Shown here piece by piece: positions 1 through 30,253 of a DNA stretch of 33,317 nt. The translations under genes were made by a program, and so were the position numbers. The DNA comes from Eubacteriales bacterium (GTDB lineage Bacteria > Bacillota > Clostridia > Oscillospirales > RGIG5299), in NCBI GenBank assembly GCA_045648325.1, contig JAZRNU010000097.1:1-33317 (forward strand). Direction: 5' to 3'. The notes under the pieces are model-generated. The model was not told the origin of the DNA and ran no database searches. It saw only the letters and a program-made list of their open reading frames with translations. Each line of letters begins with the position of its first letter. Within the stretch, counting starts at the first letter, position 1.

Positions 1-62
1 GTGGTCTTACCGTGGTCAACGTGGGCGATGATCGCAACGTTTCTTATGTCGTTTCTTACCAA
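1..62 (-). CDS. typA: TypA/BipA translational GTPase, first ~20 codons only (gene continues past the left edge)
   Basis: Not in the ORF track. The reverse complement of 1-62 reads [23 protein letters not shown], the G1/P-loop N-terminus of translational GTPases. AHVDHGKTT preceded by IRNVAII is the TypA/BipA pattern. An AAGGAAG Shine-Dalgarno lies about 8 nt upstream of the TTG at 60-62. Confidence 0.7.
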
Positions 63-114
63 ATCTATTACTTCCTTTTCAAAGAAGATTTTTAACGTAT
101 TTTACCAACTATAC

Positions 115-143
115 ATTATAGCACTTTTATATAAAACTTGCAA
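115..143 (-). promoter_or_regulatory. sigma-A type promoter for typA
   Basis: On the minus strand: TTGCAA (138-143), 17-nt spacer, TATAAT (115-120), about 50 nt upstream of the typA start. Confidence 0.5.
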
Positions 144-218
144 TATAAACGTGAAAATTAAGCGGGATTTTTCTGCAAAAATCCTTTTCATAATTGCTTT
201 TCCGGCAGCTCAGAACGT

Positions 219-249
219 AAAGAAACCGACCGTTACGGTCGGTTTCTTT
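219..249 (-). terminator. Intrinsic terminator-like hairpin at the end of the phage-like module
   Basis: Perfect inverted repeat AAAGAAACCGACCG (219-232) / CGGTCGGTTTCTTT (236-249). It starts at the holin stop codon. The arms are A/T-rich at their outer ends, so it could act in both directions. Confidence 0.6.
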
Positions 250-638
250 CATTCCTTTAGTTGTTTTAAAGCGTCAAGCAGCTTTTCGGGCAGCGGAACT
301 CCCATTTTGCCTGCGTTTTCAAGCACCGAAAGCCCTTCGTTTGCAATCATAAAATAGCAAAACGCGGTTTTGAATATGAAATCGGTTTCAAGTAATCGGT
401 CGATCATAACCGCCACTATCACACAGCATAAGATAGTTATCTTTTTGAGTATTCCCAAAAGTCCCTGCTTGCTTGAAAGAGTCTTGGTATATGCCGCCGC
501 AACAATTCCCGTAATATAGTCAAGCACTATGAATATGCAAAGAGTTATTACCGAAATGTCAAAGCCTCCGAAAAGATAGGTCGCAAAGGTGCAGACCGCC
601 GCAAACGCCCCCTTTAAAGCGATGAGTGCACCGTTCAT
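249..638 (-). CDS. Holin, Phage_holin_4_1 (TcdE-like / toxin secretion-phage lysis holin) family
   Basis: 129 aa with three hydrophobic segments. Contains the family-typical LDYITGI and ANEGLSVLENAGKMG motifs. GGAGGA ribosome binding site. Its ATG overlaps the upstream stop (ATGA at 635-638). Confidence 0.88.
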   Translation of the reverse strand: MNGALIALKGAFAAVCTFATYLFGGFDISVITLCIFIVLDYITGIVAAAYTKTLSSKQGLLGILKKITILCCVIVAVMIDRLLETDFIFKTAFCYFMIANEGLSVLENAGKMGVPLPEKLLDALKQLKE

Positions 639-1420
639 GAAACGTCCTCCTCGCTCAAATAAAGCATCTTTCTTACCCTTTCTATATCGGCTTCCGAAAA
701 GAGTCCGCTTTGCCTCATAAGGGAAAACTCCCTTATAAGCAGGCTTTTATATGCCGTGCCCTTGTAGGTCGAATTTTTTATCATATTGTCGCAAAGGGTC
801 TTAAGCTCCTTGTCTGAAAGAGCGCCCGTGGTTGCCTCTTCTTCGTTTTTCTTCATTTCAAGGTATTCGGCATTCAAGCGGTTTTTTATCTCGTCAAGCT
901 TTATGCGGGTGTCCTCAATAAGCTTTTCCTCTGCCGCCCTAAGCTCTGCTGACTCATATTCCCTTTCAAGCTCGCGCTCCTTTTCCTCTGCTGCCGCCTT
1001 GTTTTCAAGCGACATTATCGTTTCCTTGAGTTCGTTTTCGTTTATGCCCTTCATAATAAGAGCCTTTTCGAGATAATCCTCGCCGTCTTCCTTTGCTTCC
1101 TTGCCGGTTATTCCCTTATAAACGTTTTTAAGCTCTGAAAGTCGGGCGTTTCGGCGCATATCCGCCTCGTCGGAATAGTTCTTTTTTACCGTTTCGCTTT
1201 TTGTGCTTTGGGTGTTTTTCAAAAGCGCATTTGCCGCCGCAGCGCTCTCGTCATCGAGCTTTTTATTTTTCAGCGCGTTTTCCGCCTTAAGCTTTTTAAT
1301 CGCCGCCGCGAGAGAGGAAACGGCAGAGCTCGCCTTTTCCTTCTCGCTTATTTTATTTTCTTCTCCGAGCTTTGAAGCAAGCTCGTTTATATCGTTTAAA
1401 ATTGCGTTTGTCTTTTTCAT
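635..1420 (-). CDS. Highly charged coiled-coil phage protein, function unknown (internal/ejection or fibre-like protein possible)
   Basis: The ORF track gives 635-1468. I prefer the ATG at 1420 (MKKTNAILND...) because AGGAAGTG sits 5-6 nt upstream and this removes the overlap with the upstream gene. The protein is rich in E/K/A heptad-like sequence. Its position is between the putative tail gene and the holin. Confidence 0.7.
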   Translation of the reverse strand: MKKTNAILNDINELASKLGEENKISEKEKASSAVSSLAAAIKKLKAENALKNKKLDDESAAAANALLKNTQSTKSETVKKNYSDEADMRRNARLSELKNVYKGITGKEAKEDGEDYLEKALIMKGINENELKETIMSLENKAAAEEKERELEREYESAELRAAEEKLIEDTRIKLDEIKNRLNAEYLEMKKNEEEATTGALSDKELKTLCDNMIKNSTYKGTAYKSLLIREFSLMRQSGLFSEADIERVRKMLYLSEEDVS

Positions 1421-1431
1421 TTCTTCACTTC

Positions 1432-3126
1432 CTATCTTCTGTTTACCGTGTAAAGCTTTGTTGCGCAAATCACTACCTCGTCAACGTTTAACTCCTCGTT
1501 CTCCTTTTGCGAGCGGATAAGCAGGTCAAGGGTGTAAAACCTTTCCTTTTTGGCACCTATTCTCGTGATTTGCTCCTTTTTACTTCTGTACCCCGTTTTG
1601 ATCTCGTATGTGGTGGGGCTTTCGGAAACGTCACCTATTACCGAAATTTCACCGCCGTTTAAAAGACCGGTTTTTATAAAAACGTCGGTAAGCTGCTTTT
1701 TACGGAACGACGTTCCGAAATCTATTCCCTCAAGATAACAATAGGCGTCTATCGGGCGTCTTTCATCGGAGGGGGTTATATCAACGTAAATATCGTTAAA
1801 CTCGCAAAGGTAGCCATCGTTATCAATAAACTTCAGGCTCGTGCCCTGCTCGAAAATATTAGAAATCGGAAGTCCCTCGAGAGTATAAAAGACGTCGTTT
1901 TTGTAATTCCAGACTATCACCGTGCTGTCGGAGGTTATCCAAAGCTCGTTTTTCGTTTTTAAATTGAATATTCCTTCAAAGCTTGCCCGTTTGAGAGCCG
2001 CCGACACTCTGTCGCTTATTGTCACAACGTTTTTCTCGCTTTTTTCTGCAGTTGAAACAAGCCTCAAAAGCTTGTCGCCGGTTAAAAATACGGGTACGTT
2101 ATCGGCAATCAGCGCAGGACATTTCAAGTCAAATGCCGTTCCGTTAAGAAGCGAAAGAGGATATGAAACGTCGCCGTTTTCGGAAATACAAAGACTGCTT
2201 ACGAATATACCCGACGAGGTGAAAATCACCATCTGACCGTAGTGGCAGATCATATCGTAAATCATTCCCGACGAGCCTACCTCGTCGGAGTTATCTATAG
2301 GGAAATAACCCACGTTGCCGCCGTAGGAATAATAGCGTCGGTTTTTCGAACTGTTCCAGAGGAAAAGATCGCTTTGCAAATTTCCGCCGAAAAACACCGC
2401 TCTGTTACAGTTTAAAATTTCGTTTTTATTCTGCGAAAGCTCGGGAACGCGGTAGGTAACCTTTACCTTTGTACCCGCAGGAAGAGGAGGTGAAACGGTA
2501 AAGCTTCCCGCCTCCTCTCCAGGCGCGGCGGTAACGGGATAGCGGCATTCGGAAACGGTAATGTCGCAGGCGGTTTTGTATTTAAGAAAATAAGGTGAGC
2601 TGCCGTCGGTAATAAACTCCTCGGAAACAAGATCGGTAAGAGCGTTTTCCTTTTCAAACGGCTCGTAAACCGTACCCGAGGGCGATTTGTTTATTGCAAT
2701 GGTGGGAATGTAAATTTCCGGCTCAACTACGTTTAAGTGGTTATCAAAGCAGGTGAATTCTCCGCCCACAAGATAAAGCTTATCGTCCTTTACAAAGCAT
2801 TTTCCTTTACCCGCGCTTTTCCTCTCGTAAACCTTCACAAAGGTATAGTTCTGAAATCTGAAGCCCCAAAGCGCGGTTTCGGTCAGCACGAGAAACGAAA
2901 AGTTATACATCGTCTGGGTGGCGAAGAAAACGATATCAAGCGCCTTGCCCTCAACCGAATTCTGCGAGCCAAGCTGAAAGCCTTTTCTTTTTCGCAGCTT
3001 GCCGTCGTCGGTTATTGTGAAATTCACAAGCCCCCTTGCCTCACCGAGCGCCGTCTTTGAGGAATAAATGCTATCGTTAAGGCCCAAAAAGGTTGAAATC
3101 GAAACAGCGGTGTCAGAAACTGCCAT
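1432..3126 (-). CDS. Large beta-rich phage structural protein (candidate tail tube/nozzle or tail knob)
   Basis: The ORF track gives 1432-3168. The likely start is the ATG at 3126 (MAVSDTAVSIS...), with GGAG 10 nt upstream. About 564 aa, with little predicted helix and many aromatic/Gly beta-type segments. It follows the capsid and a ~190-aa protein, as a podovirus nozzle gene would. I recognise no family motif, so the functional call rests on position only. Confidence 0.55.
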   Translation of the reverse strand: MAVSDTAVSISTFLGLNDSIYSSKTALGEARGLVNFTITDDGKLRKRKGFQLGSQNSVEGKALDIVFFATQTMYNFSFLVLTETALWGFRFQNYTFVKVYERKSAGKGKCFVKDDKLYLVGGEFTCFDNHLNVVEPEIYIPTIAINKSPSGTVYEPFEKENALTDLVSEEFITDGSSPYFLKYKTACDITVSECRYPVTAAPGEEAGSFTVSPPLPAGTKVKVTYRVPELSQNKNEILNCNRAVFFGGNLQSDLFLWNSSKNRRYYSYGGNVGYFPIDNSDEVGSSGMIYDMICHYGQMVIFTSSGIFVSSLCISENGDVSYPLSLLNGTAFDLKCPALIADNVPVFLTGDKLLRLVSTAEKSEKNVVTISDRVSAALKRASFEGIFNLKTKNELWITSDSTVIVWNYKNDVFYTLEGLPISNIFEQGTSLKFIDNDGYLCEFNDIYVDITPSDERRPIDAYCYLEGIDFGTSFRKKQLTDVFIKTGLLNGGEISVIGDVSESPTTYEIKTGYRSKKEQITRIGAKKERFYTLDLLIRSQKENEELNVDEVVICATKLYTVNRR

Positions 3127-3688
3127 TTGCTTCACACTCCGTTCCCACGGCATCGTCCATTTCCTCAAAAAAGCCCTGCGATTTCATCGCGCGCAATCGG
3201 CTCCTTGCTCTTTCGAATTTTTCAGCAAATTCGGCCGAAAGAGATGCATTTTCCTCCTTCATAAACACAGAGGCAAGATAATAGGGCACCGTGGAAATTA
3301 TATCGTTATCGGAAAATGAAAATTCCGAGTTGTCATCTGTAATGGGGGCGGGTGTTGCAAGATAGGTCATCACAGCCATACCCCTGTAATCGTTGCTGTA
3401 AACCGCAACGTCCTTTATCACTTTTATTCCGGTTCCTTCAGGAAAAACCGAAACAGTCATCAGATAATCCTCCGGCAAGGGATTTATCTGCTCTGTTGTA
3501 AAATCAAGCTCGGCGATTTTAACAAGATCGAGATAGTAAACAAGCTCCCTCTGTGCCGCATCACAAAGCTCGGGAGTTCTTTTTGCAAGCAAAGCCGTAA
3601 AATCGTTATAGAGTATCTCGCCTTCATCGTCGATGTAATCGCAAAGCGCCATAGCCCTTTTAAAAACGTCGCTGACTGTTACACTCAT
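3113..3688 (-). CDS. Putative head-tail adaptor / head completion protein
   Basis: 191-aa ORF directly after the major capsid gene, with an AAAGGAGAA ribosome binding site. Its 3' end overlaps the next gene by 14 nt. The functional call rests on position and size only. Confidence 0.5.
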   Translation of the reverse strand: MSVTVSDVFKRAMALCDYIDDEGEILYNDFTALLAKRTPELCDAAQRELVYYLDLVKIAELDFTTEQINPLPEDYLMTVSVFPEGTGIKVIKDVAVYSNDYRGMAVMTYLATPAPITDDNSEFSFSDNDIISTVPYYLASVFMKEENASLSAEFAEKFERARSRLRAMKSQGFFEEMDDAVGTECEANGSF

Positions 3689-3705
3689 GATATTCTCCTT
3701 TCTTT

Positions 3706-3738
3706 AACGCTTGCCCGAATATTTTTCGGGCAAGCGTT
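3706..3738 (-). promoter_or_regulatory. Perfect 14-bp stem-loop between the capsid gene and the downstream structural genes
   Basis: AACGCTTGCCCGAA (3706-3719), 5-nt loop, TTCGGGCAAGCGTT (3725-3738). On the coding (minus) strand it is not followed by a U-tract. Confidence 0.6.
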
Positions 3739-3751
3739 TTCTCAAGCGTTA

Positions 3752-4585
3752 TCAGGCAGTGGGACCCATGCAAATCTTAACCACAACAAGCTCTGAAGGG
3801 CGAACAACCTTTGCGCCGTATACGTGAAGACCCTTTACCGCATCGGCAAAAAGACCCTCGGGGCGATAAGCCTCCATCTTCTTCATCTGACCGACAAAAG
3901 CAATTGCCTTTCTGGTTCTTGCAAAGCAATAGTGGTAGTTTGCCGCGTCGGTTACGATGCAGTTACTCATGTAAACCTTGAAGTTGTCAAACATTCCCAC
4001 AAAGCCGCTTCCAAAGGTGTTACCGTTGGGATTTTCTCTTAAAACCTTTGCCTGCCAGAGAAGCTGGTAAACTGCGGGAGAAACCTCAAGGAAAAGCTCC
4101 TCGTTCTGGGGAACGTTGTTCTCGTAAAGAGCCTTTGCCGCAGAAGCAATCAAGGCGGTAATGCTCTCTGCCGTGGCACCAAGGCTTGAAATTACCTTTC
4201 CCGCCTCGGCGTGAAGACCGTAAACGTACTTATCTGCATCGGCAGCAAGTGCTGCAGCTGCCTCGTGCATGCAGCTTTCCATAATATCGGGAGCCGACTG
4301 AAGCTCGTCAACGTCGTCAACCATAAAGTTAACGTACTTGAGCTGATCGATCTCAAGAGTGGTGGAGCCTGCGCCCTCAAGAGTTTCGGGTGCAAGAATG
4401 TCGGTGCCTACGGTGTAGGTGTTAACGGTGGGACGCTTGGTCCAGTTGATCTGAATTGAGCTGCCGGCATTTGCGGCGTCCTTTTCATAAGCTCTGTTAC
4501 AGAGCGATGCGCCTACCGAAAGGGTATCTCTTTCTCTTTCAATTGCCTTTGCCCAAATCTTCGGTTTGAAATTAGTGTATGCCAT
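3752..4585 (-). CDS. Major capsid protein (HK97-fold, P22-coat-like N-terminus)
   Basis: 277 aa located after the scaffold gene. The N-terminal F-KPKIWAK...L motif resembles the F-PEIWS start of P22-coat-type capsid proteins. AAAGGAGAAAAAA ribosome binding site. Confidence 0.7.
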   Translation of the reverse strand: MAYTNFKPKIWAKAIERERDTLSVGASLCNRAYEKDAANAGSSIQINWTKRPTVNTYTVGTDILAPETLEGAGSTTLEIDQLKYVNFMVDDVDELQSAPDIMESCMHEAAAALAADADKYVYGLHAEAGKVISSLGATAESITALIASAAKALYENNVPQNEELFLEVSPAVYQLLWQAKVLRENPNGNTFGSGFVGMFDNFKVYMSNCIVTDAANYHYCFARTRKAIAFVGQMKKMEAYRPEGLFADAVKGLHVYGAKVVRPSELVVVKICMGPTA

Positions 4586-4604
4586 TTGTTTTTTCTCCTT
4601 TTAA

Positions 4605-5270
4605 TTATTTATTTTTTTCCGAAAGTCTGCTCATAGACTTTATTGCTCTTTCGAGATTTCTCGAAAGCTCGCCGTCGGTAAGAGCATCAAGCTCATCGTC
4701 GCTGTAATACTCGCCCGAAACGGATCCGGAGCCGCCAACCGCCTCGTTTGCCGCAAGCTCGTTTGCAGTTTCCTCCGTTTTTATCTCCAAAAGCGCGTTA
4801 AGTCTTTCAATCTCGGCATTAAGTCTTTCGGTTTCCTGTGCCGAGCTGTAACGGAAAAAGCTTTCCGAAAGCCCTTTTCCCAAGCGGTATTCGCGAATAA
4901 CGCTGTCGGGTATCTTTTTCACGTCGATTCCGGGATTTTCCTTTATAAAGTCAAGAAGCTCTTTTTCTCTTGAATCATTTTGCATTTTCGCAACGTCCTC
5001 AAGAAATTTCGTCCTGTCGTCGTAGCCGCATTCCTTCGAAAGGCTTTCAAGAAGCATAAGCCCCTTATCCGATTTAAGCTCGTTTAAGCTTTGCAAGACC
5101 TTATCGTAGTTAAGTCCCTTTTGCGCAAGCATTACCGCTTCGTCCTCGGGCAAAAGCAGCTCCTCGTGGTTGTATTTTACCTTCAGCCTAAACGGCGCGT
5201 TTTCCGCATGCCCGATTTCGTTTGTAATTTCCTGCATTTCGTTTTTTTCCATTTTTTCTTTTCCTTTCAT
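4605..5270 (-). CDS. Scaffolding protein
   Basis: 221 aa, acidic and predicted helical, with a Gly/Ser linker (GGSGSVSG). It lies between portal and capsid. An alternative start at 5252 (MEKNEMQ...) has a better ribosome binding site. Confidence 0.6.
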   Translation of the reverse strand: MKGKEKMEKNEMQEITNEIGHAENAPFRLKVKYNHEELLLPEDEAVMLAQKGLNYDKVLQSLNELKSDKGLMLLESLSKECGYDDRTKFLEDVAKMQNDSREKELLDFIKENPGIDVKKIPDSVIREYRLGKGLSESFFRYSSAQETERLNAEIERLNALLEIKTEETANELAANEAVGGSGSVSGEYYSDDELDALTDGELSRNLERAIKSMSRLSEKNK

Positions 5271-5291
5271 ATCATGGTGGATATAAATTTA

Positions 5292-6812
5292 TCAAAGCTC
5301 CTCACGGTTTGAGGAAAGCTCTGTAATAAGCTCGTTTACCGCAGGCACGTAGCCCTTGGGAAGCCTTTCAAGATACTGAACGGCAGTTATCGCGCCCGAA
5401 TTAAAGAGGCTCGAAAGTGCCGCCACCGAGTTTAACTCGCTGAAATAGCTCGAGGGACCAACGTCTACCTTTACTCTTACCGCCGCACCCGCTATCTCCG
5501 AGGGCTTGTATTCAAAGCTCGTAAGACCGTTTCCGTCCGAAAGCAAAAGCTGCTTTTTGGCGGTGAATTTGGTTTTCAGAAAGTCAAGCCAGATAAGGGC
5601 AATATCCTCGGTGAAGTTATAGAGATTTTGCTTGATTATCTCCATGGGTATTGCCGCATTCTGACCGAGTGCCGCAATAGCCGCCGCATTGTCGGGACGA
5701 ATGCTCTGTCCAAGCAAAACGTCGGTTGCACCCATACACTCCTCGGTGTATTTCACGGCGCGGTCAACCAAAGCCATTGCATTGGGATCAATGCCCGCAC
5801 CCTCAAGATATTTTGCAACTCCGCTTATATCGCCGTTTACGGGAAGAGCCGCGCCTACTGCGTTTGACCAGCTTGCAACCTTCGTTTTATCGTAAACCAC
5901 CTTGGGAAAAGCGGTGTCCATAAGGCTTTTCATAGCCATTGCGAACATCTTGTTTATAAAAATCTGATTGGGAACAATTCCCTTTGCAAAGCTTTCGCCG
6001 TGGTAGCTTCCTTTCTTTTCAGTCCAGTTTGCAAATGCAACGGGATAGCGCGAAAGCCCTGTGTTGACGTCGTTTTTGAGCACTACCTCGCGGGTGGACT
6101 TTGTAAACCGTATCTTTCCGTCCTCACCTCTGTAATACTTAATAAGATAGGTGGTGCGTGCAGAACCGTCGGACTCTCCGTAATCTATTCCGTCGGAATC
6201 CGAATCGGGAATAATTTTTTCAATTTCCTCCTTTGAAAGCCCTGCCGCCCTTGCCTCGGCAATAAGCTCGGAGGTAAAGCATCTTCCCGCCAGAATTATA
6301 TAGGGCTGACGCGAAACGTCGTTTGTGGTAACGTCGCCGAAAAAGACTCTTGCGCCGTCAATAAGCTCGGTTTTAAAATCGCCTCTTATGCCGTTTGCTC
6401 TCACGGCAGTTTTATCCCAATAAACGTGAGCGCACATATCTCCCGTTATTGCCGCATCAAGAAGCGCCTTTTTGAGCTTTAAATCCATCTTGTTTTCTTC
6501 CCAGACGTATTCAGCCTCGCTGTTAAGTATCTCACTTACTCTGTCGTTTCCCGTGCGATAGGTTATCTTTATCGGCGAGGAGCAGATATAAGCGATAACG
6601 TAGTCGATTATTCTTTTAAAAATATTGAATACCGGCGTGGGAAGATTGTTTGCCTTTACTCCGTGCCACTGATCACCTCGGTAAAAGCGCTCGTTTTTAA
6701 CGGCGTTTGATTTAAACCCCGTCTGAGAGGAGTAATCGGTGCCCTTGACGTAAAGAAGCCAATCGGACGAAACCTCTCTTTCCTTCAACCTATTTCTCAA
6801 CTTCATTTTCAT
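5292..6812 (-). CDS. Portal protein
   Basis: About 505 aa, immediately downstream of the large terminase and upstream of scaffold and capsid. The ATG at 6806 has better GGGAG spacing than the one at 6812. The family call rests on position and size. Confidence 0.7.
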   Translation of the reverse strand: MKMKLRNRLKEREVSSDWLLYVKGTDYSSQTGFKSNAVKNERFYRGDQWHGVKANNLPTPVFNIFKRIIDYVIAYICSSPIKITYRTGNDRVSEILNSEAEYVWEENKMDLKLKKALLDAAITGDMCAHVYWDKTAVRANGIRGDFKTELIDGARVFFGDVTTNDVSRQPYIILAGRCFTSELIAEARAAGLSKEEIEKIIPDSDSDGIDYGESDGSARTTYLIKYYRGEDGKIRFTKSTREVVLKNDVNTGLSRYPVAFANWTEKKGSYHGESFAKGIVPNQIFINKMFAMAMKSLMDTAFPKVVYDKTKVASWSNAVGAALPVNGDISGVAKYLEGAGIDPNAMALVDRAVKYTEECMGATDVLLGQSIRPDNAAAIAALGQNAAIPMEIIKQNLYNFTEDIALIWLDFLKTKFTAKKQLLLSDGNGLTSFEYKPSEIAGAAVRVKVDVGPSSYFSELNSVAALSSLFNSGAITAVQYLERLPKGYVPAVNELITELSSNREEL

Positions 6813-6978
6813 CTCCCGTGTAATTCATAATTGCTTCAAGCTCGGCTTCGATATCGAAGTCAAAGCTTTTGTTCTGATCTTCCTTCTGTTTCTGAGACCT
6901 CTCTTTTCCGAAAAGCACCGCCGCAAGCGAGAGCGTAGCGGCAACTCCCGAAAGAAGCCCCGAAAGATAAATAAGCAT
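6790..6978 (-). CDS. Small membrane peptide with acidic tail, between terminase and portal
   Basis: 62 aa with one N-terminal TM helix (LIYLSGLLSGVAATLSLAAVLF) and then a K/E/D-rich tail. GAAAGGAAG ribosome binding site 5 nt before the ATG. Its 3' end overlaps the portal start. Confidence 0.6.
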   Translation of the reverse strand: MLIYLSGLLSGVAATLSLAAVLFGKERSQKQKEDQNKSFDFDIEAELEAIMNYTGDENEVEK

Positions 6979-6990
6979 TTTTTCTTCCTT

Positions 6991-8328
6991 TCATTCAAAA
7001 AGATATTTGTAGGTGGGAACACCGTCGTTTTCTTCCCTGTCAAAGGGATTTCCAAAGCTTTTTTCAAAAGAAAACCTCTCTTTTTTCTCGAAAAAACAAG
7101 GACGCGACATTGCTCCGTAACGAAGCGCCTCCGGCGCGTGGGTGATCTCGTGAGGACTGTCGGAAACGTCCTCGGGGTTTTTCTTGGAGTGGGTAAGAAG
7201 CGGCAGGCATCTTACGAGATTCAAGCAACACCCGTCAAAAAACCTTAGTCTCGGCAAGCCGCCTTCATCTGCCCGCAAAAGCTCTCTTAAAAGCCGGAGT
7301 CCTCTCACTCTGCCGTTGTCGGCGGGGATAAGTCCCGTTAGCCCTGCCGACGCGAAAATCTCAACGCCCGACACACCGCTTTCCTGCCTTCTGTTCCACA
7401 AATCGGGTGAAGCAACGGTGTATTCTATCCTCTCGTTATCGGGTGTAAGACCGTTTATTTTTCTTGCCGCCTCCGAAAGAGTGAGATTTGGCTCGTAAAG
7501 CTCGCGGTAAATATACATTTGTCCGCTTTTGTCAACTGCCCACCACAAGCAGGCGGTCATATCAAGACCATAGTCAAGTGAGCGGAAAAGCGTCATTCCC
7601 TCAATGGAAAAGGGGGTAATTATGTGCTTTCTTTCGGAAAATTCCGAAAAATACGCACCCTCAAAAAAGCTCCAATCTCCTTCAAGAAGCCTTCTTCTTT
7701 CCTTTTGGGGAAGCTCCGAAAGCCGCTTTATATAGTCGGGATCCGACCTCATAAGAAAGTCGTTATCCGAAACAAAGGAGGGAATAAATTTAATTTTTCT
7801 ACCGTTTTTAACGTATTCCCGTCTGTCTATAAAGCGTCTTTTCACAAACTCGTGACCCACACCGCCGGGGTTTCCGGTGGATTTTACCTTTTTTGGGTAT
7901 CCGTTTGATCCGCGGAGTCTTGAAAGCATATAAAGGTATTGGCTTTCGGTAAAGTGGGTAAGCTCGTCAAAGCGGATAACGTCGTATTCCGCCGACTGAT
8001 AGCGGTAAACGTCCTCCTCCGACTCCAGATATCCAAGCTCTATAACCGAGCCGTTTTTGAAATGCCAGCTGTGCTTTGAGGAAAGATATTTTCCCGCCTT
8101 TTTCGGGAAAAATCTTTTTGTAAGCGGAACTATGCTTCTTTCAAGCTCCGGAAAGGTGCGACGCAAAACAAGCTGACGCGAGCCCGGATATTTAACCGAA
8201 AAGAAAAGTGCGTCTATTACCTGTGCGCAGCTTTTGCCGCCGCCTGCCGCCCCGCCGAAAAATATCTCGTCGGCATCTGTATTTATAAACTCCGACTGCT
8301 TTGCCGTTACCGTAATTTCCTTTTTCAT
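6991..8328 (-). CDS. Terminase large subunit
   Basis: Walker A GGAAGGGKS, Walker B VIRFDELTHF and a C-terminal nuclease-type LDYGLD acidic motif. Its start overlaps the terS stop (ATGA, 8325-8328). Confidence 0.9.
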   Translation of the reverse strand: MKKEITVTAKQSEFINTDADEIFFGGAAGGGKSCAQVIDALFFSVKYPGSRQLVLRRTFPELERSIVPLTKRFFPKKAGKYLSSKHSWHFKNGSVIELGYLESEEDVYRYQSAEYDVIRFDELTHFTESQYLYMLSRLRGSNGYPKKVKSTGNPGGVGHEFVKRRFIDRREYVKNGRKIKFIPSFVSDNDFLMRSDPDYIKRLSELPQKERRRLLEGDWSFFEGAYFSEFSERKHIITPFSIEGMTLFRSLDYGLDMTACLWWAVDKSGQMYIYRELYEPNLTLSEAARKINGLTPDNERIEYTVASPDLWNRRQESGVSGVEIFASAGLTGLIPADNGRVRGLRLLRELLRADEGGLPRLRFFDGCCLNLVRCLPLLTHSKKNPEDVSDSPHEITHAPEALRYGAMSRPCFFEKKERFSFEKSFGNPFDREENDGVPTYKYLFE

Positions 8329-8660
8329 TTCATATCGCCCGTCACGGTAAGGGCAATGTCAAGGTCCTCCTCCTTTTCGTCCTTGCCGTACCCGAAAACG
8401 TTTTGGAGGCAGATATTTACCACCGTGGGATTAAACCGCTTAAACGCCGCGCCCGAAAGGAGCAGATGCTCCATCTCGTTCATTGCTCTTACGTAGGCCT
8501 TGCGAAGCTCTGCATTTTCACTTTCCGAAAGCTTAAAAAGCTCCTCTTTGGTGATTTCAAGATAGTTTGCAAGTCCTGCCGCAGTAGGCATTTCCTTTTC
8601 CTTTTCGTAAAAGGTGGAAACGTAACGGTTAAGTCTTTTAATAAGTATTTTTTCGCTCAT
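8325..8660 (-). CDS. Terminase small subunit
   Basis: 111 aa with a helix-turn-helix-like PTAAGLANYLEITKEELFKL segment. It is translationally coupled to terL. Confidence 0.7.
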   Translation of the reverse strand: MSEKILIKRLNRYVSTFYEKEKEMPTAAGLANYLEITKEELFKLSESENAELRKAYVRAMNEMEHLLLSGAAFKRFNPTVVNICLQNVFGYGKDEKEEDLDIALTVTGDMK

Positions 8661-8713
8661 TTTCTTCTCCTTTCCTTCTTTTCGGTTACACGCAGTATTT
8701 TAATCCCCGTTTT

Positions 8714-8730
8714 CTGCAATAAACTGCAAT
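8714..8730. repeat. Tandem heptamer CTGCAAT-AAA-CTGCAAT (10-bp register) upstream of terS
   Basis: Copies at 8714-8720 and 8724-8730, read directly from the sequence. They lie 54-70 nt upstream of the terS start codon. Confidence 0.6.
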
Positions 8731-8752
8731 GATAAGAGTTTTCATTTTTTTA

Positions 8753-8795
8753 TTGACAATAAAATAAAAATTTGTTATTATTATATTGTTATAAT
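8753..8795 (+). promoter_or_regulatory. Promoter region of the beta-helix lipoprotein operon
   Basis: TTGACA (8753-8758), 17 nt, TATTAT (8776-8781). An alternative extended -10, TGTTATAAT, lies at 8787-8795. Confidence 0.55.
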
Positions 8796-8818
8796 AATAC
8801 ATTATGGGAGGCAAACAA

Positions 8819-10381
8819 ATGAAAAGAATCACGGCAATTTCGCTTGCGGTATTACTTCTTCTCTCCGCTCTTTTGGGGCTTTCCTCTTGCGGCGGAAATA
8901 AGAAAATTCCGTTAAACGACTATTACAGCTACCTTACTGATTTTGAAAACGACGAGTCCGACTGGGCAAAATCCATAAGAGCAGCGGCTGATGCGGTAAA
9001 GGCAAGCTCCACCACGGGAAATTCAAATCTCTATATTCCCAAGGGCGTTTATGAAATAAACGGTATGCTCCAGATCCCCGTCGGAGTAAACCTCATATTT
9101 GAGGAGGGCGCAATCTTCAAGCTCGGCGCAGAAGCCACCTTCAATATGAACGGCAGAAATATAATCGCTCCCAAAACTCAGATATTCGACGTGGCCGACG
9201 GCGCCAAAATAATGGGAAGCGGCTTCTTCTCTGCAAGCGTCGGTTGTCCCGAATGGTTCGGTGCAAAGGTCAACGACGATATCGACGATTCCAAGGCTAT
9301 AAACTACGCAGTAGGCTGCTTTGCAACCGTTGAGTTTTCAGAAGGCACCTATAACGTTGATAAAAACGTCGATCTCAACACCGACTCCAAGACCCACACC
9401 TCTCTTATCCTTAACGGTGCCGGCAAGGATAAAACCGTTTTAAAGGTTTCTCCCAACGTTAAATGCTTCTTCTTTGACGGCTCCAAGGTGTTCTATTATC
9501 TTATCGAAATAAGAAACATCGGCTTTGAGGAGGTCGGCGGCGGCAGAACAGGTATTGCAATATCCGTTCGCGGTGCAACTCCCAACGCTTCACCCAAGGC
9601 AGTTATCACCGATTGCTCCTTCAAGGGCTTTAATACCGCATTTGCCACCGGAAACTCCGGCTTCGTCCATTTCAATAACAACTACGCCGAAAACGACGAG
9701 GTCGTTTGTGAGATCGGCGGCGGCGCCATGTTCCTCTTCTATAAATACAACAAGGCTGTTTCAAACGGCTACTTCCTCCGCTGCGATATCCCCGCTAACG
9801 GCGGTTATTCAAACGGTATAGACATCGTTGAAAACGAGGTCTCCAAATCGGAGCAGTACGATATCTTTATCAAGGAAAATCAGGCGGTATTCATTGAGAA
9901 GTGCAGCTTTACAGACGGCAAGGGCGAAGCCTCTGTCTATCTTGCAAGCGTTTCCGATTTTAGAATAACCGACACCGTTATCACCTCAAGCCCCGAGGCT
10001 CCCGAAAGAGTCGCATACTACAACAAAAACTCCCACTCGGGCTATATTTACAACGTTGAATTCAAAAATAACGGCACCGGCATCTTCTTCGACGGTCCCA
10101 CCGGTTGGAGAAATATGACCTACGTAAACAGCTGCGTTTTTGAAAACAACTCGGTAAACGACATTACCTTAAAGCGCGTAAGTGACGTTAAGATCGTTGG
10201 CAACCAGTTCAAAACCGCATTCTCGCACGATAACGCATCGTCAACCGAAATCAAGTTCAACGACGTAAGAGTTAAAAACATTTTGATTGCAGAAAACACC
10301 TTTGCATCAAAGGCAACGGTATTCTCCGAGGCTTTCGGCGTTGAAAGCAACGTTGAATACGATAACACCTTCAACGGTTAA
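8819..10381 (+). CDS. Lipoprotein with right-handed parallel beta-helix (pectate-lyase-3 / tailspike-like) fold
   Basis: The track start at 8804 is unlikely. The ATG at 8819 is preceded by GGGAGG. Lipobox LGLSSC|GG. PEWFGAKVNDDIDDSKAINYAV resembles the Pectate_lyase_3 start motif. PbH1-like repeats are present (for example FENNSVNDITLKRVSDVKIVGNQF). Confidence 0.75.
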   Translation: MKRITAISLAVLLLLSALLGLSSCGGNKKIPLNDYYSYLTDFENDESDWAKSIRAAADAVKASSTTGNSNLYIPKGVYEINGMLQIPVGVNLIFEEGAIFKLGAEATFNMNGRNIIAPKTQIFDVADGAKIMGSGFFSASVGCPEWFGAKVNDDIDDSKAINYAVGCFATVEFSEGTYNVDKNVDLNTDSKTHTSLILNGAGKDKTVLKVSPNVKCFFFDGSKVFYYLIEIRNIGFEEVGGGRTGIAISVRGATPNASPKAVITDCSFKGFNTAFATGNSGFVHFNNNYAENDEVVCEIGGGAMFLFYKYNKAVSNGYFLRCDIPANGGYSNGIDIVENEVSKSEQYDIFIKENQAVFIEKCSFTDGKGEASVYLASVSDFRITDTVITSSPEAPERVAYYNKNSHSGYIYNVEFKNNGTGIFFDGPTGWRNMTYVNSCVFENNSVNDITLKRVSDVKIVGNQFKTAFSHDNASSTEIKFNDVRVKNILIAENTFASKATVFSEAFGVESNVEYDNTFNG

Positions 10382-10399
10382 GAAAGGAGATAAATTACT

Positions 10400-12091
10400 G
10401 TGAAAATTTCAAAAATAATTTCTGTTTTAGTGGCTTTATCTCTTGTATTTTGCCTTTTTGCAGGCTGTGCACCTCAGAGCGAGCTTTCCTACTACGTTCC
10501 CAAGCTTACCGACTACGCTTCATCAAACATCTATGCAAATATCCAGAATATCTGGCTTTCTGCCAACGCACAGTATAACGAGGTTCCCTTAAATGCAACC
10601 CTCGACGGAACCGAGAAGAACCTCAAAAATCTCACCGTTGATTTTGCCGCCAAAAACGACGGCAGCGAGGATATTTCCTCAGCTCTTACCGAGGCAATTA
10701 CCGCTATCGGCTCAGAGGAAGGCTACATTCATCTCGTAACCGGTCTTTATAAGCTTTCTTCCGATATAACCGTTCCCGAGAACGTAACCGTTTCCTTTGC
10801 ACCCGGTGCAGTTATCTCGGTTGACGCGGGCGTAACCCTCACCATTGATTCAAAGAAGATATACGCTCCCATTGCAAAGATCTTCGAGGGCGAGGGCACC
10901 GTTGCCAGAATGAAGAATATCGAGTTCGGTTATCCCCAGTGGTTCGGCGCAATAATCGGCGATGAAAACGGCGATTCCGATGCCTTCCAGAAGATAATCA
11001 ATGCCGTTGATACCATCTATCTCATCTCCGGCAGATACGATCTTGAAAAGACTATCGTTATCCCGCAGGGCAGAAACATCTCGATAATCGGTCAGGGTCA
11101 GTACAGCCTTTCTTTCCTCTATATCACTGCTCCCATTGCATTCAGCTATCAGCGCGAGGCAGGAAGTGAAAAGACCGACCTCTACATCACCGGCGTTTTG
11201 TTCAAAAGCGATAACGCCAACACCGCAGTTTCTTTCCACGGAATCGAGGGTGCAACCGACAGTTCGCTCAAAATAACCAACTTTGTTTATGACAGAATGC
11301 ACACCCTCGTAAGCATCTCCTACGTAACCGGTTGTGAATTTGCCGATTCGAGAGGTGTTATTACCAAATACAGCTTCATTCTCGGCAAGCAGTGCAACGA
11401 TACCACCTTCGGCTCCTTCCTCTCTCTCTCGGGCGGCTCCTTTATAGTTGCCGACGGCGGCGAGGAAAACGACGGCAAGTCGAAAGGCATCACCCTTCTT
11501 AACAGCTGCAGCGTCTGGGCTTACGCAAGTGATATAATCATCAAGAACTATTCCGATATCTCCATCAAGCAGGGCGGCTATGACCTCGGCTGCAACCAGA
11601 ATCCCGGAACCGACAACCGCGCCGCAATCGTTTTCGACGGTGTAAAGAACGCCTCGTTCGACGGCAACTGGATAGCAACCTGCCCCGATGCTCCTTATTC
11701 CGCCAAGGAATTCCGCGACGGTATTCTTATTATAAACGGCTGTGAGAATATCGGCATTCGCGGCAACTCCATCGTTAACAACAGAATAGGCGTTAACGTT
11801 GATAACGGCACCGACGTAAATGCAAATATTGAAATAGTAGGTAACAAGGGCGAGGGCAACTTCCAGCACGACTTCTACCTTGCAAACTCAAACGGAGTAA
11901 AATTAAACTACAACTTCTGCTACTCCTACAAGTGGAGAGGCATTCCCTATGAGATTTCGGGCGGCGGCAACCTTAAAAACATCGAGGTTATCGGCAACTC
12001 GCTTGGTAACGCACAGTATGACCTTATTTCTCAGATCGGTCTTACCGAAAGCTATAAGTGCGATTACAACCTCTTCTCCGTTACCTCCTGA
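10400..12091 (+). CDS. Lipoprotein with right-handed parallel beta-helix fold, paralogue of the preceding gene
   Basis: GTG start with AAAGGAG 10 nt upstream. Lipobox LFAGC|AP. PQWFGAIIGDENGDSDAFQKIINAV aligns with the same motif in the upstream protein. PbH1-like repeats are present (IRGNSIVNNRIGVNVDNG, IEIVGNKGEGN, IEVIGNSLGN). Confidence 0.75.
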   Translation: MKISKIISVLVALSLVFCLFAGCAPQSELSYYVPKLTDYASSNIYANIQNIWLSANAQYNEVPLNATLDGTEKNLKNLTVDFAAKNDGSEDISSALTEAITAIGSEEGYIHLVTGLYKLSSDITVPENVTVSFAPGAVISVDAGVTLTIDSKKIYAPIAKIFEGEGTVARMKNIEFGYPQWFGAIIGDENGDSDAFQKIINAVDTIYLISGRYDLEKTIVIPQGRNISIIGQGQYSLSFLYITAPIAFSYQREAGSEKTDLYITGVLFKSDNANTAVSFHGIEGATDSSLKITNFVYDRMHTLVSISYVTGCEFADSRGVITKYSFILGKQCNDTTFGSFLSLSGGSFIVADGGEENDGKSKGITLLNSCSVWAYASDIIIKNYSDISIKQGGYDLGCNQNPGTDNRAAIVFDGVKNASFDGNWIATCPDAPYSAKEFRDGILIINGCENIGIRGNSIVNNRIGVNVDNGTDVNANIEIVGNKGEGNFQHDFYLANSNGVKLNYNFCYSYKWRGIPYEISGGGNLKNIEVIGNSLGNAQYDLISQIGLTESYKCDYNLFSVTS

Positions 12092-12101
12092 TATAAGCTT
12101 T

Positions 12102-12135
12102 AAAGGAAGCGATTTTATCGCTTCCTTTTTATTTT
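12102..12135 (+). terminator. Intrinsic terminator of the beta-helix lipoprotein operon
   Basis: AAAGGAAGCGAT / ATCGCTTCCTTT stem followed by TTTTTATTTTT. Confidence 0.7.
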
Positions 12136-12198
12136 TCCTCATTCACACATTCCCTCCTCCTTTCATAGAATGAACTATAACGAAAGGAGGTAAACAGA

Positions 12199-12360
12199 AT
12201 GTGTAATGATAACAGCTGCTTAAGCAACAGCACCCTCTTCTGGATCTTCATCGCCGCAATCATCGTGCTCCTTTTCTTCACGGGCGACAGAAACTGCGGA
12301 TGCGGATGCAATAACAACTCCCTTGGCAACGGTTGCAACTGCGCAGGCGGCAGCTTCTAA
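12199..12360 (+). CDS. 53-aa Cys/Gly/Asn-rich single-pass membrane peptide (not in the ORF track)
   Basis: Translates to MCNDNSCLSNSTLFWIFIAAIIVLLFFTGDRNCGCGCNNNSLGNGCNCAGGSF. AAAGGAGG (12183-12190) lies 8 nt before the ATG. Terminators flank it on both sides (12102-12135 and 12375-12410). Confidence 0.7.
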   Translation: MCNDNSCLSNSTLFWIFIAAIIVLLFFTGDRNCGCGCNNNSLGNGCNCAGGSF

Positions 12361-12374
12361 CGGCAAAACATAAT

Positions 12375-12410
12375 AAAAACAGTCTGCTTTTTGCAGACTG
12401 TTTTTATTTT
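12375..12410 (+). terminator. Intrinsic terminator after the small peptide gene
   Basis: AAAAACAGTCTGC, TTTTT loop, GCAGACTGTTTTT, followed by ATTTT. Confidence 0.75.
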
Positions 12411-12413
12411 ATC

Positions 12414-12442
12414 TTGCAATGTTTGTGTTTTGGTAGTATAAT
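12414..12442 (+). promoter_or_regulatory. sigma-A type promoter of the Cys-repeat lipoprotein gene
   Basis: TTGCAA (12414-12419), 17 nt, TATAAT (12437-12442). AAAGGAG ribosome binding site before the ATG at 12472. Confidence 0.6.
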
Positions 12443-12471
12443 ATTGCTAACGTAATTAAAGGAGTATCACA

Positions 12472-13314
12472 ATGAAGCTTAAATCTCTTATTTCGGTTAT
12501 ATTGGCAATTTCACTTTTTGCACTTTCAGGCTGCACCCTCTTTTGCTCTCACGAATGGGCAGAAGCAACCTGCCTTGACCCCAAGACCTGCACCCTTTGC
12601 GCAAAAACCGAGGGCGAGGCACTCGGTCACAATTGGCAAGACGCAACCTGCACCGTTTTAAAAACCTGCACCCGCTGCGCAGTTACCGAGGGCGAGCTTG
12701 CCGCGCACGATATGAAGGAGGCAAACTACCAGACACCTGCCACCTGCAACGATTGCGGCCACACCGAGGGCGACGTTTTAACCCCCTTCTACGTTGAAAA
12801 GGGTGCAACGGTAATCATTGCCGAAATGGGCAAGGAATACAATTATAAAACCGGTTGCTACACAAGCGGAAGCCGCTCCACCACCGGAAAGCTCCGATGG
12901 GAGGATCACGAGGTCTTTACCTCGAAGGACGGCTACGAGGCGGCAGAGGGCTACGAGTGGCACACCGTTACCGTTAAAATAAAATTTTCCGACGAAAACG
13001 CCCAGACCTACGGCTTTGTTGTTCAGCCTGCTCTTGACGATTATTACACCGGCGATACCTCACCCGTAAACGACGATATAAACACCTTCAAGGTAAACTT
13101 CAACGGCGAGATATATGACAAATGCCTTATGCAAAACAGCCAGGGCAGCTTTTCTTCCTGGCAAAACGGCTCCTGCACCTACACGGGAGAATATGCATGG
13201 CGAGTTCCCGTTGGCTATGACGGACACGTTATAATGTTCTATCATTCAAGCCTTTCGGGTCAGAACGTTTTTGATAACCTCGATAAGCCCTATCTTTTCT
13301 TCGTTTTTGAATAA
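12472..13314 (+). CDS. Lipoprotein with three N-terminal Cys/His repeats and an uncharacterised C-terminal domain
   Basis: Lipobox ALSGC|T. Three repeats of ~26 aa of the form H-x-W-x-x-A-T-C-x4-T-C-x2-C-x3-E-G-E. The remaining ~175 aa carry no motif I recognise. Confidence 0.75.
   Translation: MKLKSLISVILAISLFALSGCTLFCSHEWAEATCLDPKTCTLCAKTEGEALGHNWQDATCTVLKTCTRCAVTEGELAAHDMKEANYQTPATCNDCGHTEGDVLTPFYVEKGATVIIAEMGKEYNYKTGCYTSGSRSTTGKLRWEDHEVFTSKDGYEAAEGYEWHTVTVKIKFSDENAQTYGFVVQPALDDYYTGDTSPVNDDINTFKVNFNGEIYDKCLMQNSQGSFSSWQNGSCTYTGEYAWRVPVGYDGHVIMFYHSSLSGQNVFDNLDKPYLFFVFE
12550..12780 (+). repeat. Three tandem coding repeats (26, 26 and 25 codons) of a Cys3/His motif
   Basis: HEWAEATCLDPKTCTLCAKTEGEALG / HNWQDATCTVLKTCTRCAVTEGELAA / HDMKEANYQTPATCNDCGHTEGDVL. 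Confidence 0.8.
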
Positions 13315-13322
13315 ATAAAAGG

Positions 13323-13354
13323 AAAAAGCGGTCAGCTTAATGCTGACCGCTTTT
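13323..13354. terminator. Bidirectional terminator between convergent genes
   Basis: AAAAA-GCGGTCAGC, TTAAT loop, GCTGACCGC-TTTT. It lies between the + gene ending at 13314 and the - gene ending at 13419. Confidence 0.7.
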
Positions 13355-13418
13355 AATTTTATCTGTGGATTTCAAAGTAGCCGTCTTTTAAAGCGCCGAT
13401 TTTTTCGGACGGGGTAAA

Positions 13419-13988
13419 TTATTTTTCGTCTTTAAAAAGATTTCTGTAATCGTCAAGAGTGGTGGGTTTGAATTCGTCAAACGAAAGAGCGCAGCTTACG
13501 CTTTCATCATCATTTACATAACCGCGCAAATAATTGCCCACCAAATAATACGGACCAATATCAGCATACTCTTCTTTATACTCTACAAAAGCAACTATGG
13601 TTTCATCAAGTTTCAAAAATCCGCCCGCTGTAACATCAACCGTTCTCACGATTTTTGTCATCTGAACAACGGTAATTATATCTCCTTTTTTCAGATCACC
13701 CGATATTCCCTCAATTACCTCTACCGTGGAAACCCAAATATCATCTATGTTATCACCAAACATTTCATCGAGTTCCTTGTCAATGAATTCGGGGTCTTTT
13801 ATCAGCTTACAGCTTAAAACCTTGCCGACAATGACGTCCTTCACCTTCATAACGTCTTCAAACGTCATAGGTCTCTCCAGCTCTTGTGTCGTAACCGTTT
13901 CATCGGGGTAAACTATTTGGGGAGAGCAAGAGGAAAATATAACGGCTGTGAGTAAAGCCAAGGCTACTAATAACGTTAGTTTCTTCAT
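13419..13988 (-). CDS. Small lipoprotein of unknown function, translationally coupled to the upstream metalloprotease
   Basis: I prefer the ATG at 13986-13988 (MKKLTLLVALALLTAVIFSSC|SP, lipobox) over the GTG at 14000. GAAAGGTGG ribosome binding site. The ATG overlaps the protease TGA (ATGA). Confidence 0.75.
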   Translation of the reverse strand: MKKLTLLVALALLTAVIFSSCSPQIVYPDETVTTQELERPMTFEDVMKVKDVIVGKVLSCKLIKDPEFIDKELDEMFGDNIDDIWVSTVEVIEGISGDLKKGDIITVVQMTKIVRTVDVTAGGFLKLDETIVAFVEYKEEYADIGPYYLVGNYLRGYVNDDESVSCALSFDEFKPTTLDDYRNLFKDEK

Positions 13989-15739: not shown

Positions 15740-15836
15740 TTTAGACCTCCGTTAATATTAATTTCTTTTACAGAAGCTTTACATTACCATTGGACTCACC
15801 ACTTTTAATCAAATTTTAAGCTGTTCGCTTGTTTAT

Positions 15837-15864
15837 ATTATACCATATTCGCCCAATTTGTCAA
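15837..15864 (-). promoter_or_regulatory. Strong sigma-A promoter of the metalloprotease gene
   Basis: On the minus strand: TTGACA (15859-15864), 16 nt, TGG-TATAAT extended -10 (hexamer at 15837-15842). The leader is about 90 nt. Confidence 0.6.
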
Positions 15865-15974
15865 CCTCATTATGCAATTTTTGTGAAAACTGCACAAAAA
15901 TCTGTTTTAAAAGCCGCAATTTGCGGTACCCCATATAGGGGGGGATAGCGGAGTGCGGCATATTTTTTGTGCAA

Positions 15975-16007
15975 ACTAAACAAAATCCCCCTGCCAAAAG
16001 CAAGGGG
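15975..16007 (-). terminator. Possible terminator of the yerC-hslO-DUF362 operon
   Basis: On the minus strand: CCCCTTGC, TTTTG loop, GCAGGGG (one bulge), followed by GATTTTGTTT. The stem is imperfect. Confidence 0.35.
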
Positions 16008-27242: not shown

Positions 27243-27243
27243 T

Positions 27244-29163: not shown

Positions 29164-29202
29164 CGTGTTTATTGCCCCCGTGTATAATTATTCTAATAAA
29201 AT

Positions 29203-29231
29203 ATTATAATATATTACGTTTATTTTGTCAA
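29203..29231 (-). promoter_or_regulatory. Consensus sigma-A promoter of the aconitase-icd-rex operon
   Basis: On the minus strand: TTGACA (29226-29231), 17 nt, TATAAT (29203-29208). Confidence 0.65.
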
Positions 29232-29263
29232 TTAAATATCCCACTCTTTCTGTTAAATTCCTG

Positions 29264-29292
29264 TTGCATTTTTGTTTTTTTTGTGTTATAAT
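29264..29292 (+). promoter_or_regulatory. sigma-A promoter of the sugar isomerase gene
   Basis: TTGCAT (29264-29269), 17 nt, TGT-TATAAT extended -10 (hexamer at 29287-29292). Confidence 0.6.
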
Positions 29293-29322
29293 CTAAATAT
29301 ACATTAATAAGAAGGTGCAATT

Positions 29323-30156: not shown

Positions 30157-30165
30157 AATTAACTT

Positions 30166-30194
30166 AAAAAGCAGGCTTTGCCTGCTTTTTATTT
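30166..30194 (+). terminator. Intrinsic terminator after the isomerase gene
   Basis: AAAAAGCAGGC, TTT loop, GCCTGCTTTTT. Confidence 0.7.
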
Positions 30195-30253
30195 GCATTT
30201 TCCCCTTTACTGTGGTATACTTTTATATATCAACGTTAAAAAGGAGCTTTATT

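Follow-up and report, generated by a model that had tools for sequence, protein, structure and literature searches.

Ten structural and packaging genes beside typA

The 33,317-nucleotide contig JAZRNU010000097.1 of a Eubacteriales bacterium (hereafter the window, meaning the whole stretch of DNA that was analysed) carries at 249-8660, on the minus strand, a cluster of ten intact and tightly coupled open reading frames (ORFs) that we consider a candidate gene transfer agent (GTA) locus of podovirus type. By family assignment and gene order, this cluster is one that encodes a predicted packaging motor (TerS/TerL), together with a portal, a scaffold, a capsid, an adaptor, a large virion protein, and a holin, and no genes for integration, replication, or autonomous regulation are present in it. 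In the direction of transcription, its features are as follows (aa, amino acid residues; dN/dS, ratio of nonsynonymous to synonymous divergence).

8697-8729, minus strand: candidate activator-dependent promoter/operator before terS, TTGCAG-N4-TTGCAG-N11-TAAAAT
8325-8660, minus strand: terS, small terminase subunit, 111 aa (Pfam GP3_package, 3e-11; dN/dS 0.04-0.09)
6991-8328, minus strand: terL, large terminase subunit, 445 aa (Terminase_6N, 1.5e-12; phrog_979, 1.9e-53; dN/dS 0.07-0.13)
6790-6978, minus strand: 62-aa peptide with an N-terminal transmembrane helix (orthologues in the relatives L003, L004, and L006)
5292-6812, minus strand: portal of P22/SU10 type, 506 aa (P22_portal, 6e-15; phrog_156, 3e-41)
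4605-5270, minus strand: scaffolding-like protein, 221 aa (position between portal and capsid; jackhmmer)
3752-4585, minus strand: major capsid protein of HK97 type, 277 aa (Phage_capsid_4, PF25209, 1e-7; phrog_267, 1.9e-46)
3113-3688, minus strand: head-to-tail adaptor of SU10-adaptor type, 191 aa (weak direct match, 8e-4)
1432-3126, minus strand: beta-rich virion protein, 564 aa (23% identity over 94% of the length to gp15 of Bacillus phage Page)
635-1420, minus strand: charged helical protein, 261 aa (E 16%, K 14%, A 11%)
249-638, minus strand: holin, 129 aa (Phage_holin_4_1, 3.9e-40; TIGR01593, 2.4e-28)
219-249, minus strand: hairpin terminator closing the cluster, 14-bp stem with 7 GC pairs

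An earlier, sequence-only reading of this stretch had described ten co-oriented, intact, and closely coupled ORFs with ATGA start/stop overlaps at 8325-8328 and 635-638, and had placed both cluster ends inside the window, between typA and a divergent lipoprotein operon, each with its own promoter; all of this holds, and only its coiled-coil protein, which is present and is charged and helical, has to be corrected in length from 262 to 261 aa. On the left, positions 62 to 1 of the minus strand encode the 20 N-terminal residues of TypA, in a translation identical to the N-terminus of a BipA_C-containing gene in L003, and typA has a sigma-70-like promoter site of its own at 143-115, downstream of the hairpin. 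On the right, the divergent operon of three lipoproteins is preceded by a near-consensus sigma-70-like promoter at 8753-8781. The same reading had also reported the lack of any integrase, replication, tail-fibre, or endolysin gene, and none of these families was found when 16 further window ORFs were scanned, all of them belonging to cellular or secreted-protein families or matching nothing, with other long ORFs (19132-20496 and 26079-31549) read by eye only, outside the family scan. Att-like direct repeats are absent from positions 1-16000 of the window, and tRNA genes from all of its 33 kb. The composition of the cluster is host-like, with 46.4% GC, 51.8% GC at third codon positions, and a codon usage correlated at r=0.95 with that of host genes.

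The small gene between terL and portal is conserved, and an ORF of 60-91 aa stands at the same position in phage relatives. The scaffolding-like protein has no Pfam match at E<=0.1 and no NCBIfam match at E<=0.01, and jackhmmer ties it to gp5 of phage Page and to the equivalent gene of every related locus. The capsid protein is 36-40% identical to capsids of Clostridium perfringens phages and of a faecal virome scaffold, and an exact look-up of it matched no contig. As for the adaptor, the SU10_adaptor family PF24175 is matched by 8 of 16 members of the 191-aa family (best 3.9e-9), and in most related loci, though not in Page, the gene immediately precedes that of the 564-aa homologue; a profile search of the PDB and a tblastn search against phages gave nothing with this protein, hhalign comparisons with gp12 and gp11 of SU10 were not significant, and its AlphaFold2 model from the single sequence was unusable (predicted local distance difference test, pLDDT, 41).

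The 564-aa protein belongs to a family with 412 representatives in 1.84 billion clusters, nine of whose 13 members tested match phrog_3287, and carries propeller-blade-like repeats. Its Page counterpart gp15 is annotated as a "virion structural protein". From its position and synteny, we infer that it is the tail hub or nozzle. AlphaFold2 with a five-sequence alignment gave an unusable model (pLDDT 35), a metagenome scan with the alignment of the 564-aa protein found no relative, and the PDB profile search of the family returned only propeller-blade repeats of designed proteins and non-significant matches (26fb_K, E=0.27; the distal tail protein of the GTA known as RcGTA, E=3). The 261-aa protein, with homologues only in L003, L004, and L006, is by synteny a putative internal/ejection or needle-like virion protein.

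Relatives at the same locus and in a wider family

Close relatives of the 564-aa protein are rare, only two others being found in 5.8 billion proteins, and their contigs, together with one from a genome scan, have all ten genes in identical order. These three same-locus relatives besides the window (L003/L005, L004, and L006) are all metagenome-assembled genomes (MAGs) of Clostridia/Eubacteriales and also share the divergent operon, with its two beta-helix lipoproteins and its 280-aa lipoprotein, a nearby typA, and the lack of lifestyle genes. All ten genes show dN/dS of 0.04-0.28 (Nei-Gojobori). Between L003 and L004, synonymous divergence (dS) of terL, portal, and capsid is 0.8-1.2, and that of the head genes as a whole 0.8-1.3, against 0.77 for typA and 0.91 for the Na/H exchanger gene, and between L004 and L006 the cluster genes have 0.015-0.11 against 0.04-0.05 for the flanking typA and Na/H exchanger genes (typA 0.047); this parity is that of two pairs of different depth, within a comparison of four typA-type and three lepA-type genomes. 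From the parity with the flanks and the low dN/dS, it follows that the cluster has diverged with the chromosome under purifying selection. The sequence-only reading had proposed precisely this comparison of synteny and dN/dS, and had held that its GTA-like or helper-dependent reading would be refuted by relatives always sitting inside full prophages, with relaxed selection on this copy; the opposite was seen, and likewise in the lepA-linked family described below.

These values bear directly on the explanation that this is a recently decaying, functionless defective prophage whose ORFs are intact for lack of time. The 564-aa gene is frameshifted in one relative and terL is split in another, as decay would have it, yet carriers separated by dS of up to 0.6-2.7 retain all ten ORFs intact at dN/dS of 0.04-0.28, with the lepA-type clusters behaving likewise, and we regard decay as very improbable. 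Evolution is much faster in the adaptor, the 564-aa protein, and the helical protein, with 49-75% amino acid identity, than in the head genes, with 79-95%; such speed is usual for host-contact parts.

The position of typA itself varies. In the window it has the same orientation as the cluster and lies immediately downstream of the holin gene (1-249), whereas it is convergent in L003 (12869-17560), L004, and L006, at a distance of 1.7-2.9 kb and with the Na/H exchanger gene in between, and these differences in orientation and distance point to a local rearrangement.

The wider family is considerably larger, with 751 portal homologues at E<1e-20, mostly in Clostridia MAGs. A second, distant family (L008, L009, L011, L026, and L027) is linked to lepA, with lepA and hydrogenase genes as its flanks, and has terS and terL followed by portal, scaffold, and capsid, then one or two small genes, a homologue of the 564-aa protein with 569-574 aa, a protein of 344-385 aa, the holin, and a protein of 107-109 aa; its clusters have dS equal to that of their flanks and dN/dS of 0.04-0.13, and their position beside lepA is kept at 78% LepA identity. 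Another compact cluster, with an M23 peptidase, is spoIIE-linked (L028), and a portal-capsid-hub set without terminase adjoins rny (L029). An Oscillospiraceae set, also without terminase (L010), has GntR-regulator and ABC-transporter genes on one side and an AMP-binding acyl-CoA-synthetase-type gene on the other. A solo intact portal gene of 53% identity (L023-L025, 10001-11524) is flanked by plsX/radical-SAM and transketolase genes at a distance of 6 kb from typA, in a host with 68% TypA identity, and is present on more than 23 contigs. Finally, a related cluster with insertions (L031, 1-13276; ENA k141_2290), of 51% portal identity, has a terL split into 313 and 118 aa and a MuF-like head-morphogenesis protein apparently fused to a toxin. 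The short related contigs gave no sign of being circular when this was tested.

Relatives of full phage size also exist. Four IMG/VR viral contigs of 35-41 kb (L034, L036, L046, and L058), mapped by ORFs and tblastn only, have 44-56% identity to lepA-type proteins and more tail genes. Portals have 567-634 aa in these contigs and 635 aa in Page, against 498-554 aa in the compact chromosomal clusters, and scaffolds have 246-310 aa in the contigs against 138-221 aa; the compact clusters, with their shorter portal and scaffold, may form a smaller capsid. The existence of 35-41 kb relatives (Page and the IMG/VR contigs) shows the compact clusters to be reduced derivatives of a real podophage lineage.

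What also links these scattered loci is the candidate promoter. No standard sigma-70 site was found upstream of terS on the minus strand, and the TTGCAG-repeat motif that stands there has a single match in the 33-kb window and is invariant in L003, L004, and L006. The promoter is probably activator-dependent, since the spacing of the repeats is not that of a normal -35 element, and no regulator gene is present in the cluster; a sigma-54 or sigma-D site, considered by eye, was discarded for want of the -24 GG and of suitable spacings. The same geometry recurs before terS of the spoIIE-linked cluster, before the solo portal of L023, where the repeat is TGCAT-N4-TTGCAT, 55 nt upstream of the gene, and, in L031, ahead of all three segments into which the cluster is interrupted, in three near-identical cassette copies of ~60 nt. 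In the form TTGCAK-N4-TTGCAG-N11-TAAAAT, the motif is kept across loci with only ~50% portal identity. A metagenome scan returned 75 sites, mostly chance-like or part of an unrelated recurrent soil element, and the extended cassette was matched by eye only in L073, L078, L098, and L128, in L098 before a gene resembling a DnaC-type loader. As a side observation, many short metagenome contigs (L062, L065, L067, L072, L081-L083, L088, L090, L091, L095, L103, and L120) share an unrelated and highly conserved element, GCAAATTAAGGTATTGCAGAYATTTGCAGATTTTTAAGTCTAAAAT.

Comparison with known systems and rival explanations

A parallel with T7-like podoviruses had been drawn from the gene order, and this proved imprecise: the portal is of P22/SU10 type, the adaptor of SU10 type, and the 564-aa protein related to Page gp15, a weak Phage_T7_tail match being given by one distant family member alone. 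Bacillus phage Page (Pagevirus) shares the order of the head genes and has homologues of the portal (32%), the scaffold, the adaptor (gp12), the 564-aa protein (gp15, 23%), and the holin. In contrast, its capsid (gp6) is of a different family, and its genome of ~40 kb carries a tailspike, fibres, an endolysin, and FtsK-like and replication genes that are absent from the window cluster. Nor is this an intact Page-like prophage, which would have 35-40 kb with contiguous tail, lysis, and replication genes, given that housekeeping and lipoprotein genes abut both ends of the cluster.

The closest known system is FpGTA, the podovirus-like GTA of Faecalibacterium prausnitzii, whose ten-ORF operon of ~10 kb (Borodovich et al., Nat Commun 2026, PMC12946183) matches in outline, by annotation. 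That operon encodes TerS and TerL, a portal, a capsid of the N4-gp56 family, a nozzle, and two further proteins, one Prp-like and the other TolA-like and abundant, with a head-scaffolding homologue also listed, and a second operon 125 kb away encodes fibres, a receptor-binding protein, a holin, and an endolysin (PMC12946183). FpGTA particles of 40 nm contain 8.4-8.9 kb of host DNA, and the system is near-ubiquitous in its genus and has no replication or integration genes (PMC12946183). Both are chromosomal ten-ORF operons of gut Clostridia, podovirus-like and with lysis that involves, or in the window cluster would involve, a holin, and the TolA-like particle protein (RCH50844) is comparable in position and annotation to the 261-aa protein. 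The differences are equally clear. The FpGTA capsid is annotated as N4-gp56, whereas the window capsid has no TIGR04387 match at E<=1 (Page gp6, as positive control, 1e-72); FpGTA has a Prp-like protease gene between portal and capsid, where the window has a Page gp5-family scaffold instead; the FpGTA holin is in the second operon 125 kb off, whereas the window holin is in cis and closes the structural operon; and FpGTA I (RCH50844-RCH50853; CP030777, 2536737-2546346) does not lie beside typA or lepA, unlike the window-type clusters. Because of the capsid family, the lack of a Prp-like gene, and the holin in cis, we place the window cluster in the podovirus-type kind of GTA and not as a member of FpGTA, which was compared by annotation and description. 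The suggestion of an undescribed podovirus-type GTA holds only in part now that a podovirus-like ten-ORF GTA has been published (PMC12946183).

With RcGTA of the Alphaproteobacteria, the cluster has in common a head and packaging gene set without lifestyle genes, vertical inheritance, purifying selection, host-type composition, and relatives with genes at several loci. RcGTA differs in being siphovirus-like, with a long-tail module, unrelated proteins, and CtrA/GafA control, whereas the tail here is minimal and podovirus-like and the candidate promoter is another one. Three features of GTAs in the general sense were found here: phage-derived genes for structure and packaging with none for integration, excision, or replication; co-divergence with the host chromosome; and purifying selection on all structural genes.

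A small cluster with its own terminase, portal, and capsid is also what capsid-forming phage-inducible chromosomal islands (cf-PICIs) possess, and a helper-dependent satellite of this kind would build its own small capsids and neck, depend on a co-resident podophage for induction, replication, fibres, and lysis, and spread horizontally. The lack of a receptor-binding protein or endolysin in the cluster would fit such a life, as would the related 35-41 kb viral contigs as potential helpers, the DnaD-like gene (assigned by eye) and helix-turn-helix gene of L031, and the L098 promoter cassette before its DnaC-type-loader-like gene, and a recent preprint likens such clusters to capsid-forming satellites. 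However, cf-PICIs have int, alpA, and rep genes, att sites, and tails borrowed from siphoviruses. The window cluster has nothing of this kind: there is no integrase, rep/pri gene, or tRNA target, nor are there att repeats within positions 1-16000, and it encodes its own adaptor and hub. Moreover, four genomes have the cluster at one and the same locus, its dS matching that of the housekeeping genes on its flanks, the lepA-linked family stays in place even where LepA identity is down to 78%, and the composition is fully host-like, so that we consider a satellite quite improbable. The sequence-only reading had offered GTA-like, satellite-like, and domesticated as options, of which the first and the last are now favoured and the satellite disfavoured by the dS parity and the shared locus.

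A different possibility is that a cryptic prophage remnant is kept for some function other than transfer, be it killing or lysis by a particle like PBSX, the setting free of DNA or cell contents, or holin-dependent export, in which case packaging would be incidental. The holin falls in the "toxin secretion/phage lysis holin" family TIGR01593, the L031 toxins appear to be fused to a head-morphogenesis protein, and the authors of the FpGTA report left a PBSX-like role open for their own system (PMC12946183). On the other hand, the cluster contains no toxin or bacteriocin gene, and terS and terL are among its most constrained genes (dN/dS 0.04-0.13), a constraint which suggests that DNA packaging itself is under selection; we thus find a non-transfer role unlikely.

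We suggest, with a probability of roughly 0.6, that the cluster is a domesticated, vertically inherited remnant of a Page/SU10-like podophage that works as a GTA-like particle factory, with packaging predicted from its genes. In its favour we count the gene content, the shared locus, the dS parity and low dN/dS, the host-like composition, the independent lepA-linked family, the split or dispersed relatives, the motif kept across distant loci, and the precedent of FpGTA. According to this proposal, a trans-acting regulator encoded outside the cluster would activate the TTGCAG-repeat promoter in a subpopulation of cells, procapsids would assemble on portal and scaffold, and TerS/TerL would fill them with DNA by headful packaging. 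The portal would then be closed by the adaptor and the 564-aa hub, with the 261-aa protein carried as an internal or needle-like component, and particles would be released by the holin and a lysin encoded elsewhere. The receptor-binding and lysin functions would be expected at a second locus, as in FpGTA.

We suggest weighing this proposal against several points that count the other way. Particles, packaged DNA, and transfer are predicted here from genes alone. The particle may be incomplete, since no receptor-binding protein or endolysin was found in the window, and the 564-aa and 261-aa proteins owe their putative roles to synteny, as structure prediction failed. The typA-type cluster has only four carrier genomes, all of them MAGs of one narrow clade, and in one of these, the sheep-colon MAG L006, the 564-aa gene is split by a 1-bp deletion (10560-10575), which could be an assembly error or the onset of decay. 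The wider family may include mobile members, given that L031 carries a DnaD-like gene before terS (read by eye, with no family search), a helix-turn-helix gene, and barnase/barstar pairs. Separate capture events are possible as well, considering the 35-41 kb viral contigs with their 44-56% identity to lepA-type proteins.

Neighbouring genes and significance for gut Clostridia

The divergent operon next to the cluster contains the following cassette.

8804-12091, plus strand: two beta-helix lipoproteins of 525 and 563 aa (Pect-lyase_RHGA_epim, Beta_helix, lipoboxes)

This cassette adjoins the cluster in all typA-type loci (L003, L004, and L006). Its DNA is 97-99% identical among the window, L003 (1050-4316), and L006 (1041-4369), whereas the adjacent cluster differs by 12-20%, and L004 and L006 are 98-99% identical throughout except for the cassette (70-86%), a pattern which indicates that the ~3.3-kb cassette moved recently between lineages. 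The idea of the beta-helix lipoproteins as virion tailspikes was set aside because they have lipoprotein signal peptides and no similarity to the Page tailspike. The 280-aa lipoprotein (ORF 12472-13314) has three tandem units of 78 nt at 12583-12773, encoding a Cys-rich repeat, and no Pfam family, and at 13985-15739 on the minus strand follows a secreted 584-aa protein with a ricin-type lectin domain, Big_2, and a zinc-metallopeptidase motif, which is not phage-like.

A broader and more tentative proposal, which we hold as a possibility short of an even chance, is that the window cluster is one member of an old, widespread, and unrecognised podovirus-derived GTA family of uncultured gut Clostridia, distinct from FpGTA, in which the shared TTGCAK-N4-TTGCAG-N11-TAAAAT promoter would mark a dispersed regulon. 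Such a family might be the source of the locus-less GTA-like packaging of Oscillospiraceae and Christensenellaceae, and the 3.3-kb lipoprotein cassette might be a footprint of transfer.

To our knowledge, Alphaproteobacteria were for a long time almost the only known source of GTAs. The first podovirus-like GTA came from Faecalibacterium, in a 2026 report that also described GTA-like DNA packaging as abundant in further gut Clostridia, where it has no assigned loci (PMC12946183), and the novelty of the present cluster is tempered by that report. The clusters next to typA, lepA, spoIIE, and rny provide candidate loci for this GTA-like packaging in gut Clostridia. The combination of portal, SU10-type adaptor, and 564-aa hub, plus the candidate promoter motif, provides a search signature that can be used genome-wide for the missing fibre and lysis genes. 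If active, these clusters would constitute a major route, under host control, by which genes flow in the microbiomes of gut and rumen.

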